The translations under genes and the position numbers were made by a program. A stretch of 40,790 nt of DNA. Origin: a virus. Where the stretch lies: IMG/VR virus record IMGVR_UViG_2758568559_000001; one strand, written 5' to 3'. How positions within the stretch are numbered: position 1 is the first letter of the stretch; each line of letters begins with the position of its first letter. A model generated the notes under the pieces. That model did not search any database and was not told the DNA's origin. It saw nothing but the letters and a program-made list of their open reading frames with translations. Below, piece by piece: positions 18,932-23,352 of this stretch.

Positions 18932-19414
18932 TTAAAAATCGGCTAAGTTAATTCTTTTATTTAATATTCTAGTAATAAAAATTCCTAGAATCTGTGAAAT
19001 GAGCTGTCCTAAAGCTACAGTGGCGAATGTTGGAAGTATTGGCAGATTAGAAACAATATGAAGTTCAATGGCCACTAGAATAGTAGCAAGGGAAACAGAA
19101 ATAGCTGTAACTATTTGTTTAATTGTTAAGTTTTTTATGAAGTTATTAATTAATATTGCCGCTCCCAGCCCTATAATGGATGTGCCTACTCCAAAAACCA
19201 TATCTAACCATCCTAAAGGACTAATAGTATTAGCTAAAATGACGCCTAAAACTAAAGAAGGATAATATTTTTTATTAAACGGCACAAACTGATACATTAT
19301 ATTGGCAATTCTAACTTGAATCGCTCCAAAACTTATGGCTGAAAAAACTGTATTTAACACAAAAAATAAGACTGCTATAATAGCCGTCTTTGTAATAAAC
19401 TTGCTTGTTCTCAA
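18932..19414 (-). CDS. queT: QueT-family membrane transporter (ECF S-component type, queuosine-precursor uptake)
   Basis: 160 aa, about five TM helices. The N-terminal pattern TKTAIIAVLFFVLNTVFSAISFGAIQVRIANIM... is characteristic of QueT proteins. The TTG start abuts the stop of the preceding gene. Confidence 0.7.
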   Translation of the reverse strand: MRTSKFITKTAIIAVLFFVLNTVFSAISFGAIQVRIANIMYQFVPFNKKYYPSLVLGVILANTISPLGWLDMVFGVGTSIIGLGAAILINNFIKNLTIKQIVTAISVSLATILVAIELHIVSNLPILPTFATVALGQLISQILGIFITRILNKRINLADF

Positions 19415-20167
19415 TTATCTTTTTCCCTTTCTATCTACATATCTTTGGAACTTTAACCATTCTAGGTAATTATTTAATAGTACTTTTTGTTCATTTGCCC
19501 GCTGTCCTTCTTTTCGGGTTGTAGAAACAATTTGTCCATTAGAAAATTTATGAGCTTGGCCGAATCTGACCCCTGAGCTCCATGAGGTTGAGTCAACACT
19601 ATAAAAGCCATAATTAAAAGCATCTTTTCTGGTAAACGCCAATCCATGGACATTGGTTTGGTGTGCATTAGCATATGCAACCATTTTTTTAATTTTAGGA
19701 TATTCTTTTTGCGTAATTTCCTTATTACCTAACCCCCCTATACAGATATATTTATATTCAGCAACTATATCTTTATAAGCTTGCATTCCTCTAGACTTGT
19801 GCCATACAGGTATACATTGCTTTCCGGTTTCTTTTTCTAGAATTTTACGCATTCTTAATACTTTGGGATATCCAACGATAACGTCTATATCTAATTCAAT
19901 AAATCTTTTAATATCATATTTATTAATAAAATTAATATACTTGTATAAATAATCATCAAAATCAACATTGTTATTATTACTTGAAAATAATGTAAATGCT
20001 CCACTATCAAGTAAAAAAGCATCATTTTGATTTTTATTATTTAAAACTTGCATAACATTTTTATTATTTGTTAAATTGTAAAAACTCATTAAGCAATATT
20101 TTGACTGCAACATTTGGTCTAGAGTTAAGCCACTTATACATTCAAAACCTGCTAACATTAATCTCAC
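19415..20167 (-). CDS. dpdA: DpdA-like (TGT-superfamily) DNA-guanine transglycosylase
   Basis: 250 aa. The motif FLLDSGAFTLFS parallels the TGT substrate motif DSGGFQVFS. It also has ICIGGLG and YSVDSTSW acidic motifs, and no Zn-binding Cys cluster. Start is either GTG 20167 or ATG 20158. Confidence 0.65.
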   Translation of the reverse strand: MRLMLAGFECISGLTLDQMLQSKYCLMSFYNLTNNKNVMQVLNNKNQNDAFLLDSGAFTLFSSNNNNVDFDDYLYKYINFINKYDIKRFIELDIDVIVGYPKVLRMRKILEKETGKQCIPVWHKSRGMQAYKDIVAEYKYICIGGLGNKEITQKEYPKIKKMVAYANAHQTNVHGLAFTRKDAFNYGFYSVDSTSWSSGVRFGQAHKFSNGQIVSTTRKEGQRANEQKVLLNNYLEWLKFQRYVDRKGKR

Positions 20168-20747
20168 TCACCATGGCTCCTTCACTTTTAAGAAGCCACT
20201 GAACAAAGTCTGTCTCTTTGTTGGTTTCGGCGTTTTTATACTCGTTAAGTTTATTATTCAAGAATAGTAATGTATCTTGTGATACTACTACCTTTTTATT
20301 CTCCCACTTGAGGTAAAGTGTATTATCTTTTTTCTGCTGCTCTTCATCATCAAAAAAGATATCGTCTATATTTACATCGTTTTTTATTTGTTCAAATCCA
20401 AAATCTTCCATATCAAAATCAATAATATTCGCTAGTTCATCATCTAAGAACTCATAATCCCAAACTGCTATTTCACCCGTTTTGTTATCAGCTAAACGAT
20501 AGGCTTTGACTTGTTCTTTACTAAGATTTTTAGCCACTACTACTGGCACTGTGTCCATATTTAATTGTTTAGCGGCTTTATATCTTGTGTGACCAGCAAT
20601 AATTATATTATCTTTATCAACAATAATTGGTTGTTGCCAACCAAACTCTTTAATTGAATTAGCTGTTGCAGTTACTGCATCATCATTTTTTCTAGGATTA
20701 TTTGGGTATGGTTTAATATCACTTATTGCCATACTAATTACATCCAT
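20142..20747 (-). CDS. ParB/Srx-fold N-terminal domain protein (ParB-like nuclease domain; possible DpdB-like partner)
   Basis: ISDIKPYPNNPRKNDDAVTATANSIKEFGWQQPIIVDKDNIIIAGHTRYKAAKQL is a classical ParB N-terminal domain. It overlaps the dpdA-like start. Confidence 0.7.
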   Translation of the reverse strand: MDVISMAISDIKPYPNNPRKNDDAVTATANSIKEFGWQQPIIVDKDNIIIAGHTRYKAAKQLNMDTVPVVVAKNLSKEQVKAYRLADNKTGEIAVWDYEFLDDELANIIDFDMEDFGFEQIKNDVNIDDIFFDDEEQQKKDNTLYLKWENKKVVVSQDTLLFLNNKLNEYKNAETNKETDFVQWLLKSEGAMVSEINVSRF

Positions 20748-21012
20748 TCAATTTTAGCCTCTTTTCATATTTATTAAATGTTCTTTCTAGCTGCCTAACG
20801 TTGCAGCCACGTTTTCTCAGTCTTTTAATGGTTAATATCAAGTAATTATATTCATCACGCCACACATTGTTATTTTTGGCCTTATCCTTGTAAATATGTT
20901 TGAATGTAAACTTGACATCTTTAACAGTGCAGGTTTTGTCGCGATACTCGTTGAGTAACTGGTTATTAACGGTATTATCTAATACTTCAACATTGGGAAA
21001 CTTTAGCATCAC
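20734..21012 (-). CDS. Hypothetical protein, first gene of the late operon
   Basis: 92 aa, basic. SD AAGGAGG lies upstream of GTG/ATG at 21012/21009. Overlaps the next gene. Confidence 0.5.
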   Translation of the reverse strand: MMLKFPNVEVLDNTVNNQLLNEYRDKTCTVKDVKFTFKHIYKDKAKNNNVWRDEYNYLILTIKRLRKRGCNVRQLERTFNKYEKRLKLNGCN

Positions 21013-21040
21013 ATATCTTCACCTCCTTAATTGTGAGTAC

Positions 21041-21063
21041 AAAAAAAGCACTCATTGGAGTGC
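21041..21063 (-). terminator. Strong intrinsic terminator downstream of the orphan 165-aa gene
   Basis: Minus strand: GCACTC CAAT GAGTGC followed by T7. Confidence 0.7.
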
Positions 21064-21086
21064 CTGAAATATTTTGTGTATTGGGA

Positions 21087-21584
21087 TTATCCCAACGATT
21101 GGTAATATGCTGTTATTATCCATTTTAAATAGGTATAGGCGTTAAAACTATCTTTTGCCTTTATTGTTACGGTACCAGCTTTATTTAAAGTTATAGATTC
21201 TGAATTATTGCTATACGTAACATCATTGACAGTATGTTTACAAGAAAAGAAAAAATCAAAAGAATTAGGTATTTCATCTATCTTATTAACTTTGCCAAGG
21301 TAATCTAAAAAGTTAATATTGAGAACGTGAAAATTATGTTGTTCTAATTCAGTAGATACATATGCAAACTGTAAATTAGAAATAACCATAAATAATCCAT
21401 TATGGTTTTGTAATTTCTGAATTAATCCATTGCTTAAAAGGTTTTTGTAAGTGTTAGGATCATAATCAATAACTGCAATATTCTTAACAAGATTTTTGAC
21501 TTTTTTATTATCAAAGTTCTTTAGGAAAAAGAATTTACTGAATATATTTTTAAAGAGTATTGGTTTCCAGTTTACAATTGGCAA
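21087..21584 (-). CDS. Orphan hypothetical protein (moron-like, own terminator, very AT-rich)
   Basis: 165 aa with a TTG start and SD AAGAGGAAA. No TM or signal sequence and no motif I recognise. Flanked by hairpins. Confidence 0.55.
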   Translation of the reverse strand: MPIVNWKPILFKNIFSKFFFLKNFDNKKVKNLVKNIAVIDYDPNTYKNLLSNGLIQKLQNHNGLFMVISNLQFAYVSTELEQHNFHVLNINFLDYLGKVNKIDEIPNSFDFFFSCKHTVNDVTYSNNSESITLNKAGTVTIKAKDSFNAYTYLKWIITAYYQSLG

Positions 21585-22119
21585 GTTGTTTCCTCTTTTC
21601 TTATAAAAACAGTTTATATGACTTAATTTTTTATATTTATCACTCTTGCTAAGTATTTATCGCTAACTGCCAAAAAACGCCCTCCACATTTCAATTCTGA
21701 GCGATTATTTTTAAAGTTACGATTAATTAATAGCAGAACGATTAAAATCGCTTAAAACAGCTTATATTGTGTTTTACAGCTAGTGCCTAATTTAGATCAC
21801 ATATTAATGACTAAAAACAGTAAAATAAATAAAATTGTTACATCTGAGAGAATTATTACTACATATGTTATGAAAATCATTTTTCGTGCTGCTAAATTAA
21901 GCTGGTCAGGAAAACGATCATTGGATATACATGCAGTCGTTATATACCTAAGTATGAAAAATAATATTATTACTATAGCCAATAGCAATATTTTAACTGC
22001 ACTCAAAGTTAAAGCACCTTCTTAAACGAAAAAGCTAGCCTTTCCTTAACTAACTTTTTCATGATTATTAAACATGTTCATGTGAAACACTCTTGCTTTA
22101 TTTTGCCTAAAAAGGCAAA

Positions 22120-22196
22120 ATCTAGTTGAGGAGTCGAACCTCGCCTTATTAGTAACCCAGCTGCTCTTAAACTGGACAGTACCGACTGCGCTAGAT
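22120..22196 (-). tRNA. tRNA-like element (non-canonical cloverleaf; possibly a degenerate class-II tRNA or a processing signal)
   Basis: 77 nt. Acceptor ATCTAGC/ACTAGAT pairs at 6 of 7 positions. The T-arm CGAGG-TTCGACT-CCTCA has a canonical T-loop. The 5-bp anticodon-like stem is CAGTT/AGCTG. The D hairpin has only a 4-nt loop, and the residue at the U33 position is A. Confidence 0.3.
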
Positions 22197-22210
22197 TGAA
22201 ATGTTTAGCT

Positions 22211-22364
22211 TAAATAGGGGGACTTTTGACACATCCTTTTATAATTTATTTTTACTCGCGGCAATGTTGCAGGCTTAATCAATTTAAAAGGGGAGATTCT
22301 TTTCACTTCCTTTTATAATTTTATTTTGCTCGTGAGTAATTCGGCAAGGCAGGAATCGAACCTG
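22211..22364. repeat. Two diverged tandem copies of a unit of about 73-80 nt. The copy at higher coordinates retains a canonical T-arm (minus strand CAGG-TTCGATT-CCTG, 22350-22364).
   Basis: Plus-strand alignment of 22211-22260 (TAAATAGGGGGACTTTTGACACATCCTTTTATAATTTATTTTTACTCGCG) with 22283-22334 (TTAAAAGGGGAGATTCTTTTCACTTCCTTTTATAATTTTATTTTGCTCGTG). Confidence 0.6.
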
Positions 22365-22500
22365 ATTTTCTATAATATTTTTATTTATCAGAGATTAATA
22401 AAAGGAGGAATGCTTCAATTACGAGAGGTTTTAAAAATGACGGAAAAATGAATTTAGTTGACTTTTTTAAGCACCATGCTTAAGCACCTTGCCGATAATG

Positions 22501-22523
22501 GAGGCTTTCGCCTCTTTATTTTT
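22501..22523 (+). terminator. Plus-strand intrinsic terminator-like hairpin inside the spacer
   Basis: GAGGC TTTC GCCTC followed by TTTATTTTT. There is no U-tract in the minus orientation. Confidence 0.4.
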
Positions 22524-22548
22524 CCTACAATACCATTTTGCCTTATTT

Positions 22549-22632
22549 TTTCTCCAAATGTTTACGCGATTTCTCCAAATTTTTACACCATTTCTCCAAA
22601 TTCTTACACCATTTTTACACTAAATTTACACT
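22549..22632. repeat. Three in-phase 21-bp tandem iterons (TTTCTCCAAAT-N-TTTAC-N-C-N-A) plus a degenerate fourth unit
   Basis: 22549-22569 is TTTCTCCAAATGTTTACGCGA. 22570-22590 is TTTCTCCAAATTTTTACACCA. 22591-22611 is TTTCTCCAAATTCTTACACCA. These are followed by TTTTTACAC/TTTACAC remnants. The array begins 3 nt after the arpU stop. Confidence 0.85.
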
Positions 22633-22634
22633 TT

Positions 22635-23072
22635 TCATTTTTGGTAAGAATGCAGGTCATTCTCACCTTGATTAAAATAGGGTTCAGCTTGAACCTCGAA
22701 AGCGTCAGCGAATTCATTGCAGGCTACAGTTTGCATTTTGTAATAAGTACTGTAACTGGATATATTTAGCTGTACCATAACGTTAAATAATTCATCACCA
22801 TTAATAACCCGTTCATTTAAAATAATTTGACTGGTTACTGAGCAAGCCTTAATTGAACGATTAACCGCCTCTAAGATATTGCGGCTACTAACCAGCTTTA
22901 CAAATCTACCTTCTTGGGTATTACTATTATTATTGCTAGCGGGAGCAGCTGAAAGCACGGGCGATTGAAGATTAGAACCAGCCATCATCAACAGCTTTTT
23001 ATAATCTTCATCGAAAAAATCAAGAACGTTCTGTTCTGTTTTTTTTGCGTCTGCTTTTTTAAAAAGAAACAT
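22635..23072 (-). CDS. arpU: ArpU-family late-gene transcriptional activator
   Basis: 145 aa. The N-terminus MFLFKKADAKKTEQNVLDFFDEDYKKLLMMAG follows the ArpU pattern (F..iD.KKT..NV..fL..Y). It is the last gene of the early/middle region before the packaging genes, as in many Firmicute phages. Confidence 0.65.
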   Translation of the reverse strand: MFLFKKADAKKTEQNVLDFFDEDYKKLLMMAGSNLQSPVLSAAPASNNNSNTQEGRFVKLVSSRNILEAVNRSIKACSVTSQIILNERVINGDELFNVMVQLNISSYSTYYKMQTVACNEFADAFEVQAEPYFNQGENDLHSYQK

Positions 23073-23148
23073 CTAATTCCTCCCGCTTTGAGTTATGATT
23101 ACCTTTACAAGGATTTAAAGCTCTGCACTACATTCTGAGCTTTTTTGC

Positions 23149-23352
23149 TTATGACAATTGCACTTCTTTAACTATTGCATGCAACATTCGGGCAATTTCG
23201 GAAGCGTCTTTAGCGCCTTTAGTGCCTGTAAAGAAGAAAGCATCTTCCAGGTTTATGGATAAAGCTATATTGTTAATCGTGTCAGTGCTAAGGCCAGGTT
23301 GTCTATAGTCTCTTAAAAAATATCTGCCACACATTACTACATATTTTTTCAT
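23149..23352 (-). CDS. Hypothetical protein
   Basis: 67-aa ORF in the minus-strand early operon. No motif recognised. Confidence 0.45.
   Translation of the reverse strand: MKKYVVMCGRYFLRDYRQPGLSTDTINNIALSINLEDAFFFTGTKGAKDASEIARMLHAIVKEVQLS

Follow-up and report, generated by a model that had tools for sequence, protein, structure and literature searches.

A probable tRNA-derived leader RNA at a putative late promoter downstream of arpU in a temperate phage genome

Non-decoding units with the shape of a transfer RNA (tRNA) act as processing modules within longer transcripts, as in MALAT1 mascRNA and the tRNA-microRNA (TMER) units of murine gammaherpesvirus 68. In temperate Firmicute phages, the Alt-dependent late promoter of TP901-1 exemplifies an activator-dependent promoter with direct repeats upstream; to our knowledge, a long tRNA-derived leader has not been described for TP901-1-type systems, and late gene expression in the ArpU-type phages of lactic acid bacteria has been little studied. 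GOLLD and ROOL, two classes of large phage RNA, lie near tRNAs in phages (PMC5737381, PMC12286853). Here we analyse the spacer at positions 21585-22634 of IMG/VR record IMGVR_UViG_2758568559_000001, a stretch of 40,790 nucleotides that is referred to below as the window. The spacer separates the gene of an ArpU-family late activator from the genes that follow it, and an earlier note had singled it out as a candidate large ornate or processed RNA. We conclude that 22026-22634 very probably comprises a late promoter followed by a leader RNA that is conserved, structured, derived from tRNA and missing from Rfam.

The elements on which the comparison with described systems turns are as follows, from 5' to 3' on the minus strand (dG, folding free energy; z, its z-score against shuffled sequences; TL1 and TL2, the two tRNA-like modules).

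22635-23072, minus: gene of the ArpU-family late transcriptional activator (TIGR01637 phage_arpU, 60.5 bits against a cutoff of 43.1; phrog_248, transcriptional activator, E 3e-26)
22548-22631, minus: three 21-bp direct repeats (GTAARAATTTGGAGAAAT core) with a degenerate 11-nt periodic extension, from a repeat search and Tandem Repeats Finder (TRF)
22524-22542, minus: conserved box GGCAAAATGGTATTGTAGG, which includes an extended -10-like TGGTATTGT (22527-22535) and has no -35 consensus
22501-22514, minus: 5' hairpin GAGGC-GAAA-GCCUC with a GNRA loop (dG -8.9, z -4.9)
22341-22495, minus: TL2, a split tRNA-like module of acceptor strands, D-like hairpin, insert and T arm, without an encoded CCA
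22487-22495, minus: 5' acceptor strand of TL2, UCGGCAAGG (CCTTGCCGA on the plus strand)
22467-22483, minus: D-like hairpin of TL2, with a UGG loop
22350-22364, minus: T arm of TL2, CAGG-UUCGAUU-CCUG (CAGGAATCGAACCTG on the plus strand)
22341-22349, minus: 3' acceptor strand of TL2, CCUUGCCGA (TCGGCAAGG on the plus strand)
22326-22339, minus: small hairpin directly 3' of TL2, UUACUC-ACGA-GCAA in the window, followed by AAAUAAA
22120-22196, minus: TL1, a tRNA-like cloverleaf of 77 nt, a four-way junction in the minimum free energy structure
22100-22121, minus: hairpin directly 3' of TL1, UUUUGCC-UUUUUA-GGCAAAA (dG -10.2, z -4.4), followed by AAUAAA

The locus resembles TP901-1-type systems in that direct repeats and a promoter lacking a -35 consensus come immediately after an activator gene, ahead of packaging and structural genes; it differs in that binding and activation are predicted here. 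With mascRNA and the TMER units it shares a non-decoding tRNA-shaped unit that has an intact acceptor/T-arm half and lies inside a longer viral or non-coding transcript, stem-loops directly after that unit, and proposed recognition by RNase P and RNase Z. Those systems are eukaryotic and their cleavage has been demonstrated experimentally, whereas here the host is a Firmicute, cleavage is predicted, there is no sequence relationship, and in TL2 an insert of 87-137 nt replaces the anticodon arm. The phage tRNA islands near GOLLD and ROOL are similar in having tRNA-derived sequence co-transcribed with a long non-coding RNA in Lactobacillales phages (PMC5737381, PMC12286853), and a second group of phages described below holds bona fide tRNA-Tyr or tRNA-Ser in the corresponding slot. 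The window's modules differ from those islands in that they are not tRNAs by ARAGORN or Rfam, that the surrounding RNA is unlike GOLLD and ROOL, and that the leader has a fixed position directly after arpU at the late promoter. TL2 also recalls transfer-messenger RNA (tmRNA), since its acceptor and T arm are formed from the 5' and 3' ends of the RNA, with a long insert between them and a reduced D region, but it has no G3:U70 pair, tag reading frame or pseudoknots, and its insert is both short by comparison and not conserved. The element is uncatalogued and narrow in its family, and we place it with two known kinds of feature: viral transcripts that carry tRNA-like modules, and the tRNA slots of phages.

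Architecture and conservation of the leader

The window is a temperate siphovirus-type genome with mostly minus-strand transcription. The leader element begins at the stop codon of arpU, a gene that serves here as context only. Bombilactobacillus mellis ESL0449 has two prophages that encode an ArpU homologue, and further homologues occur in metagenome contigs of the ENA and Logan assemblies, which we take to be of bee-gut origin; the host is therefore placed among honey-bee-gut Lactobacillaceae. A search of 50,697 deposited phage records found no DNA-level similarity to the spacer or to 25 kb of the window. We retrieved 35 loci by way of ArpU homologues with 64-98% identity (the loci are numbered with the prefix L and include L026 and L027), all of which have a gene-free gap of ~280-870 nt 3' of arpU. 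The same order of elements recurs on the ArpU strand in almost all of them, in bee-gut metagenome contigs and B. mellis prophages alike: three to five direct repeats, the -10 box, the GNRA hairpin, TL2, a small hairpin with AAAUAAA, one or two A-rich linker units, TL1, the hairpin UUGCC-GNRA-GGCAA with AAAAUAAA, and finally the block UGUUUCACAUGRAC. The structured part occupies ~490 nt in the window (22026-22520, minus strand). Rather than the ornate RNA that had been proposed, the leader is modular, a string of small hairpins, tRNA-derived units and A-rich linkers in which we found neither a multi-junction pseudoknotted core nor, beyond the modules, any conserved long-range structure. The sequence features named in the earlier note (T arm, acceptor flank with its complement, cloverleaf and tandem units) are all present where it had placed them; the three 21-bp repeats, the GGCAAAATGGTATTGTAGG box and the 5' GNRA hairpin are additions to it.

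Covariation across homologous spacers supports both modules, each with compensatory changes in excess of those in shuffled alignments. For TL1 and its 3' hairpin, an unbiased MAFFT alignment of 13 distinct homologues covered 28 pairs; 93% of cells hold standard pairs, a figure that falls to 28-51% when partners are slid by 1-3 columns, and 9 of the 28 pairs are double-changed versus 4.3 in column shuffles, with none of 500 shuffles reaching 9. Acceptors may be wholly different in sequence (GCUAGUU/AACUAGC in L015, GACUGAU/AUCAGUC in L017), U-A alternates with C-G in the D stem and in the 2-bp stem of the variable region, and the "anticodon" stem appears as CCAG-U, CCAAG, CCAGA or CCAGC. In the window, TL1 has 6 of 7 acceptor pairs, a 4-bp D stem with a CGGU loop, the T arm GAGG-UUCGACU-CCUC, a 5-bp "anticodon" stem whose non-canonical loop contains UUAAGAG, and a 13-nt variable region with a 2-bp mini-stem. 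Across homologues the "anticodon" loop ranges from 9 to 14 nt, UUAAGAG/UUUAGAG being conserved despite the change in length, and the D loop is only 4-5 nt, usually containing GG. In some relatives, TL1 retains a canonical D-arm string (UAGCUCAGUCGGUA in L002), although other sequence has taken the place of the 3' D-stem half. The hairpin that follows is UUGCC-GNRA-GGCAA in relatives, its helix 98.5% paired. A covariance model of TL1 with this hairpin (R1) gave 106 bits in the window (22096-22199) and 90-120 bits in every RNA-bearing locus searched; it also gave a weak match to the window's TL2 (23.4 bits, 22319-22427) and 34 bits for the third unit of L009. TL1 and its hairpin are 73-96% identical to those of relatives at the nucleotide level versus 64-81% for arpU, L017 being the sole exception.

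The acceptor/T-arm module with a large insertion that the earlier note had proposed proved to be real, as judged by covariation across 10 distinct homologues. The TL2 set, in which 5' and 3' parts were spliced, covered four helices: the 5' hairpin, the long-range acceptor, the T stem and the small hairpin after the module. Pairing holds in 90.8% of cells, and there are 10 double-change pairs against 4.6 in shuffles (0 of 500 reach 10). The acceptor, whose strands lie 87-137 nt apart, is 95.6% paired and the T stem 92.5%, each with three double-change pairs. Between them, in place of an anticodon arm, stands the poorly conserved insert, A/U-rich and 102 nt long in the window. The distance from the T loop to the 3' end is 13 nt in every lineage (12 stack positions and the last base), while the split between T stem and acceptor varies (4+9, 5+8, 6+6). 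The small hairpin after TL2 takes the form UUGCC-CAUG/GAAA-GGCAA in relatives, where its helix is 84% paired and has one double-change pair. Loci vary between two and three tRNA-like modules, the third being present in L009 and L012, and in L017 TL2 abuts TL1. A possible pairing of nine complementary bases between an anti-Shine-Dalgarno-like CCUCCUUU in the TL2 insert and AUAAAAGGA in a linker was rejected, as it is not kept in L006 despite the same linkers.

The RNA is assigned to the ArpU strand because of the polarity of the T loops (UUCGAnU), that of the D-arm remnant and D loop, and the consistent GNRA loops on that strand (GAAA, GAGA, GCAA, GCGA, GUAA). No reading frame in 22026-22634 is conserved across homologues, and the only minus-strand open reading frame (ORF) of at least 20 aa within 22026-22603 is a 33-aa frame at 22205-22306. 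The description of the entire 1,050 bp as poor in ORFs stands for 22007-22634 and 21585-21796, which are non-coding; it does not extend to the stretch between them, where a 69-aa ORF has a plausible ribosome-binding site. Gene callers predict an antisense ORF over the repeats and promoter in some loci (L019 and L020, for example), which we rejected, since that stretch is open in each of the three frames and the frame changes from one locus to the next.

The putative late promoter lies directly 3' of the arpU stop codon. TRF delimits the repeats at 22549-22619 (period 21, 3.1 copies, 91% matches); they are found nowhere else in the 40.8-kb window, and the related loci that were read carry three to five copies at the equivalent position. 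The GGCAAAATGGTATTGTAGG box has one exact copy in the window, which is likewise the only copy there of TGGTATTGT. Right after arpU, 31 of 34 related sequences carry AAATGGTATTGTAG(G/A) and the other three a variant of it; TGGTATTGT also occurs in the second phage group, and L010 keeps both box and repeats although the entire RNA is missing. As an ArpU-dependent late promoter should, the box has an ArpU-family activator gene directly upstream. We infer that it is a late promoter with a start site near 22520 and that the 21-bp repeats are its activator-binding or -35-like elements. The window's repeats are 86% identical to those of L001, whose ArpU is only 66% identical, and 67% identical to those of L006, whose ArpU is 80% identical; this lack of co-variation between repeats and activator suggests mosaic recombination at the arpU stop codon. 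A cos or pac site was considered and set aside: where relatives carry HNH and Terminase_4 genes, a gap of its own lies between HNH and terS, and the compensatory changes point to a function of RNA, not DNA.

The 5' hairpin sits seven to ten nucleotides past the -10 box, and its stems covary (GAGGC/GCCUC, GACAGC/GCUGUC, GGAGGA/UCCUCC) beneath loops of GAAA, GAGA, GCAA or ACAA. On the plus strand, the same hairpin followed by UUUAUUUUU (22500-22515) scores as an intrinsic terminator, as it does in L015 and L017, and could stop antisense transcription from reverse-oriented cargo. The remaining parts of the leader are these.

22210-22258 and 22284-22332, minus: two 49-nt A-rich linker units (AAAUAAAUUAUAAAAGGA(A/U)GUG...UCCCC), 74 nt apart and 78% identical
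22075-22089, minus: conserved block UGUUUCACAUGAACA, present in most RNA-bearing sequences
22026-22062, minus: A/U-rich 15-bp terminator-like hairpin ending in CUUUUUCGUUU (dG -14.7, z -4.3)

A hairpin at 22250-22262 lies between the linker copies of the window. Relatives carry either one copy or two, and the linker units themselves showed no consistent secondary structure. A plus-strand sigma-70 promoter, TTGACA ... TATAAT inside a linker unit, was rejected, its spacing being 8 nt. In the conserved block, A-to-G changes opposite U preserve a possible 5-bp hairpin. The weak terminator that the earlier note had placed at 21678-21703 folds no differently from shuffled sequence (z -0.01), and the better hairpin, at 22026-22062, is likely the 3' end or an attenuation point of the leader; the equivalent place in other loci (L015, L030) holds clearer terminators or a different hairpin. 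Just 5' of the first cargo gene, several relatives share a further element consisting of ACUCAC, a long hairpin whose stem sequence is wholly locus-specific, and UACAUAU (in spacer coordinates, L001 460-500, L009 585-625, L011 440-480, L017 410-450 and L032 415-450). This hairpin has no U tract and is thus not a standard terminator.

A second phage group with a tRNA slot

The pattern "T arm + 3' acceptor + UUGCC-N4-6-GGCAAAA" matched 25 DNA stretches in IMG/VR and 54 in metagenome contigs. About half of these matches belong to a second phage group (group 2), with a G+C fraction of 0.41-0.47 and, in L041, an ArpU-like gene 32% identical to that of the window. The leader of this group lies, for example, at the following positions.

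1069-1880 of IMGVR_UViG_2654588121_000002 (L041): group-2 leader

It is also present in L039, L042, L044, L047, L048, L051-L053, L058, L060 and many of L063-L102. The ArpU-like gene is followed by a gene-free gap of ~800 nt that opens with the TGGTATTGT box and a GCCA-GAGA-UGGC hairpin. These are separated by ~500 nt of non-coding, highly conserved sequence from a slot between conserved flanks, the 3' one of which (GUUGCCUACGGGCAAAAUAAACUAUU...) is homologous to the flank that follows TL1 in the window. The slot is occupied by tRNA-Tyr(GUA), by tRNA-Ser(GCU), or by tRNA-like sequences that ARAGORN either rejects or credits with a 2-nt anticodon; RNAs from the slot are therefore evidently of the tRNA-processed kind. 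An ArpU-proximal leader with a tRNA slot thus extends beyond Bombilactobacillus phages, and non-decoding occupants of the slot have arisen, or have been kept, in both phage groups.

Rfam found only tRNAs in the group-2 leader, and no GOLLD or ROOL. Over ~700 nt, this leader contains several T-loop-like hairpins and ends in a strong terminator, and it may be an undescribed large phage RNA in its own right. Pattern matches outside both groups mostly look like ordinary tRNA genes followed by a hairpin and, given the abundance of tRNA genes, may be due to chance. The same may be true of L062/L114 and L091, unrelated contigs in which bare acceptor/T-arm minihelices without D or anticodon arm precede a UUGCC...GGCAAAA hairpin. 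Matches to the T-arm pattern in a high-GC phage (L003) and to the 3' block in a coding region (L028) were discarded as chance.

Possible roles of the tRNA-like modules

We tentatively read the region as the control region and transcribed leader of the late operon, with the modules as recognition units for RNase P and RNase Z. ArpU would act at the 21-bp repeats and at the extended -10 box that lacks a -35 consensus, starting minus-strand transcription near 22520, and the first ~490 nt of the transcript, with the 5' GNRA hairpin, TL2 and TL1, would be non-coding. Cleavage would cut the leader, freeing tRNA-sized pieces, and would leave a downstream fragment that starts with a hairpin and may thereby be protected from 5' exonuclease; in Firmicutes, a hairpin at the 5' end is expected to give an RNA such protection. 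Within 1-2 nt after each module comes a small hairpin, and then an A-rich tract. Both modules keep the "top half" of a tRNA, that is, the 12-position stack of acceptor and T stem, a UUCGA-type T loop and the GG of the D loop, and have lost a usable anticodon arm. RNase P gauges a fixed distance from the tRNA elbow along the stack of T-stem-loop and acceptor (PMC4919913). The top half is the part measured by RNase P, RNase Z and the CCA-adding enzyme, which argues for modules that act as processing ("punctuation") signals, and the structural prerequisites for a substrate of RNase P and RNase Z are in place. The earlier note's suggestion of a structured or processed minus-strand RNA with tRNA-like modules is supported in that the spacer encodes such an RNA, which has two of these modules, is conserved and is probably processed.

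If the modules are processing signals, they would be to bacterial viruses what tRNA-like punctuation is to eukaryotic and herpesviral transcripts, and would show how a long late operon maintains a stable message despite repeated invasion by accessory genes. There are also implications for annotation, as these elements escape both tRNA finders and Rfam and are overlaid with spurious antisense ORFs by gene callers.

Several points weigh against this interpretation. No part of the RNA is present in L010, and in L032 the 3' acceptor strand of TL2 is deleted and its T loop mutated; some genomes can therefore do without the modules, which argues against an essential role under any model. The window's TL1 has C/A mismatches at the base of the acceptor and of the T stem, and its folding energy is no better than that of shuffled sequence (z -0.4). 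The leader as a whole folds slightly better on the plus strand (z -3.6) than on the minus strand (z -2.1), and counts of G-U versus A-C as a test of strand are nearly balanced (26 vs 24). Since the related sequences are few and phylogenetically close, the shuffle statistics overstate significance. A hairpin only 1-2 nt past the discriminator might be an obstacle to RNase Z and not an aid, the processing model leaves the terminator-like hairpins between promoter and structural genes unexplained, and promoter activity, transcription, cleavage and stabilisation are all predicted from the DNA.

Alternatively, the tRNA-like pieces may themselves be the product, as stable mimics of tRNA that do not decode and that work in trans, for instance as decoys for host defence nucleases or toxins that target tRNA, or by titrating a tRNA-binding factor, with the leader as only their expression vehicle. 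We consider this unlikely. It would account for the retention of acceptor, T arm and D-loop GG beside variable, non-decoding "anticodon" loops, for the TL1 loop motif UUAAGAG/UUUAGAG that is kept though loop length varies, for a group-2 slot in which real tRNAs alternate with anticodon-defective variants, and for an adjoining accessory hot spot that in relatives holds genes of the antitoxin/toxin type (SocA/Panacea, HicAB, an M78 peptidase with a helix-turn-helix (HTH) protein). However, no defence system was identified as the opponent of such mimics, CCA is not encoded, the 87-137-nt variable insert of TL2 is hard to square with mimicry of the anticodon side, and the modules are lost in L010 and L032. 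Mimics acting in trans would represent a new type of phage small RNA. A related and likewise doubtful proposal is that the locus belongs to a previously undescribed class of leaders of Lactobacillaceae temperate phages, fixed between arpU and the late genes, with an exchangeable "tRNA slot" open to real tRNAs or to non-decoding mimics of the tRNA top half. The mimics would then be effectors themselves, and more than processing sites or relics, for example as decoys against tRNA-directed host defences or as a tRNA-shaped handle that reprograms polymerase or ribosomes late in infection.

Less probable again is a leader that works in cis, as an attenuator or a processive-antitermination RNA allowing polymerase from a single late promoter to read through the terminators of cargo genes. 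The window does have one late-promoter box, and before terS it has both the terminator-like hairpin at 22026-22062 and a clear terminator at 21046-21065 past a 165-aa gene; in relatives, self-contained cargo genes with terminators of their own are inserted right after the conserved leader, so that cargo varies and leader does not. Yet L010 has promoter and cargo but no leader, no conserved long-range structure was found beyond the modules, and the number of modules varies between two and three. We also know of no described antitermination RNA that is made of tRNA-like modules.

Of similarly low probability is the view that the modules are functionless, decaying relics of phage tRNA genes, conserved through close kinship and recombination. 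The D-arm string retained in L002 TL1 beside a replaced 3' D-stem half, the mismatches in the window's TL1, the damage to TL2 in L032, the loss of everything in L010, the weak thermodynamic z-scores and the genuine tRNAs that fill the slot in the other phage group are what decay would leave. Decay does not readily explain why compensatory changes hold four TL1 helices and the long-range acceptor of TL2 where arpU is only 64-69% identical, why TL1 is more conserved than the adjacent arpU, or why the stack stays at 12 positions while its sequence changes. Moreover, the non-canonical traits (the tiny D loop and the expanded UAAGAG loop) are common to all lineages and have not decayed independently.

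Membership of the GOLLD or ROOL families is highly improbable: the context is similar, a Lactobacillales phage with adjoining tRNA-like sequence and an RNA of several hundred nucleotides (PMC5737381, PMC12286853), but the structured part measures ~490 nt and not the 1,050 nt on which the suggested fit in size had relied, small modules in a string take the place of multistem junctions with pseudoknots, and neither family was matched in the window, in a relaxed scan around the spacer or in the group-2 leader. The scans of the window used Rfam 15 and cmscan, at gathering thresholds for the whole window, where nothing matched, and at E <= 10 with relaxed filters for 21000-23200, where GOLLD (RF01998), ROOL (RF03087), tRNA (RF00005) and tmRNA were all absent. 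The relaxed scan returned only weak matches to small nucleolar RNA, microRNA, 5' untranslated region, small RNA and hammerhead models, which were taken as noise; among them, a plus-strand type I hammerhead was dismissed at 16 bits against a gathering score of 34. ARAGORN reported no tRNA or tmRNA gene in the window or in five related loci (L001, L002, L009, L015, L017). Both modules do share with tRNA an acceptor stacked on the T arm, a UUCRA-type T loop, the 12-position length and compensatory changes, but neither has a 7-nt anticodon loop on a 5-bp stem, TL1 having its loop of 9-14 nt and TL2 its insert of 87-137 nt. For tmRNA, the acceptor CGGCAAG/CUUGCCG has no G:U at position 3, and the insert is full of stop codons. 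We found no description of the element in the literature: a full-text search on ArpU, late promoters and tRNA gave no paper, and the papers listed for tRNA-like phage transcripts with RNase P and for Bombilactobacillus prophages dealt, by their titles and abstracts, with other topics.

Neighbouring genes and accessory cargo

The lower 440 bp of the spacer, present or absent among related phages, comprise two features.

21797-22006, minus: 69-aa ORF with two hydrophobic segments, a plausible ribosome-binding site (AAGAAGGUG) and a TTG start
21585-21796, minus: 212-bp non-coding stretch upstream of the 165-aa gene, with the same sequence in that position in L013, L023 and L038

The 69-aa ORF is identical in L006, differs by three residues in L038 and is cleanly absent from L013, L022 and L023; its copies have one synonymous and three non-synonymous differences, a divergence too small for a coding test, and among 5.8 billion proteins it had no relatives beyond those of 99% identity. 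We read it as accessory cargo, neither part of the RNA nor a product that would explain the structured region. The 212-bp stretch likewise appears to be separate accessory cargo that travels with the 165-aa gene.

On the minus strand, the leader is followed by this 165-aa gene (21087-21584), a 92-aa gene and a gene with a ParB-like nuclease domain, and then by a match to PHROG families annotated as queuine tRNA-ribosyltransferase, a QueT transporter, TerS and TerL. No family in Pfam, PHROGs or NCBIfam matched the 165-aa gene. This gene precedes the clear intrinsic terminator at 21046-21065 and in L018 has an apparent TATAAT box of its own on its 5' side, and it behaves like an autonomous moron within the late operon. 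In L007, L009-L012, L015, L017, L029 and L032, the first 1-3 kb past the block UGUUUCACAUGRAC form a cargo hot spot, where, depending on the relative, SocA/Panacea, HicA/HicB (in either orientation), a P4 cII-like protein, an M78 peptidase with an HTH protein, methyltransferases or the 165-aa gene are found. In the window, the genes between leader and terS include those with the ParB-like nuclease domain and the queuine tRNA-ribosyltransferase and QueT annotations (18932-20747, minus). The queuine tRNA-ribosyltransferase match is read as DpdA-like, and we suspect that these genes form a 7-deazaguanine DNA-modification module carried as cargo.

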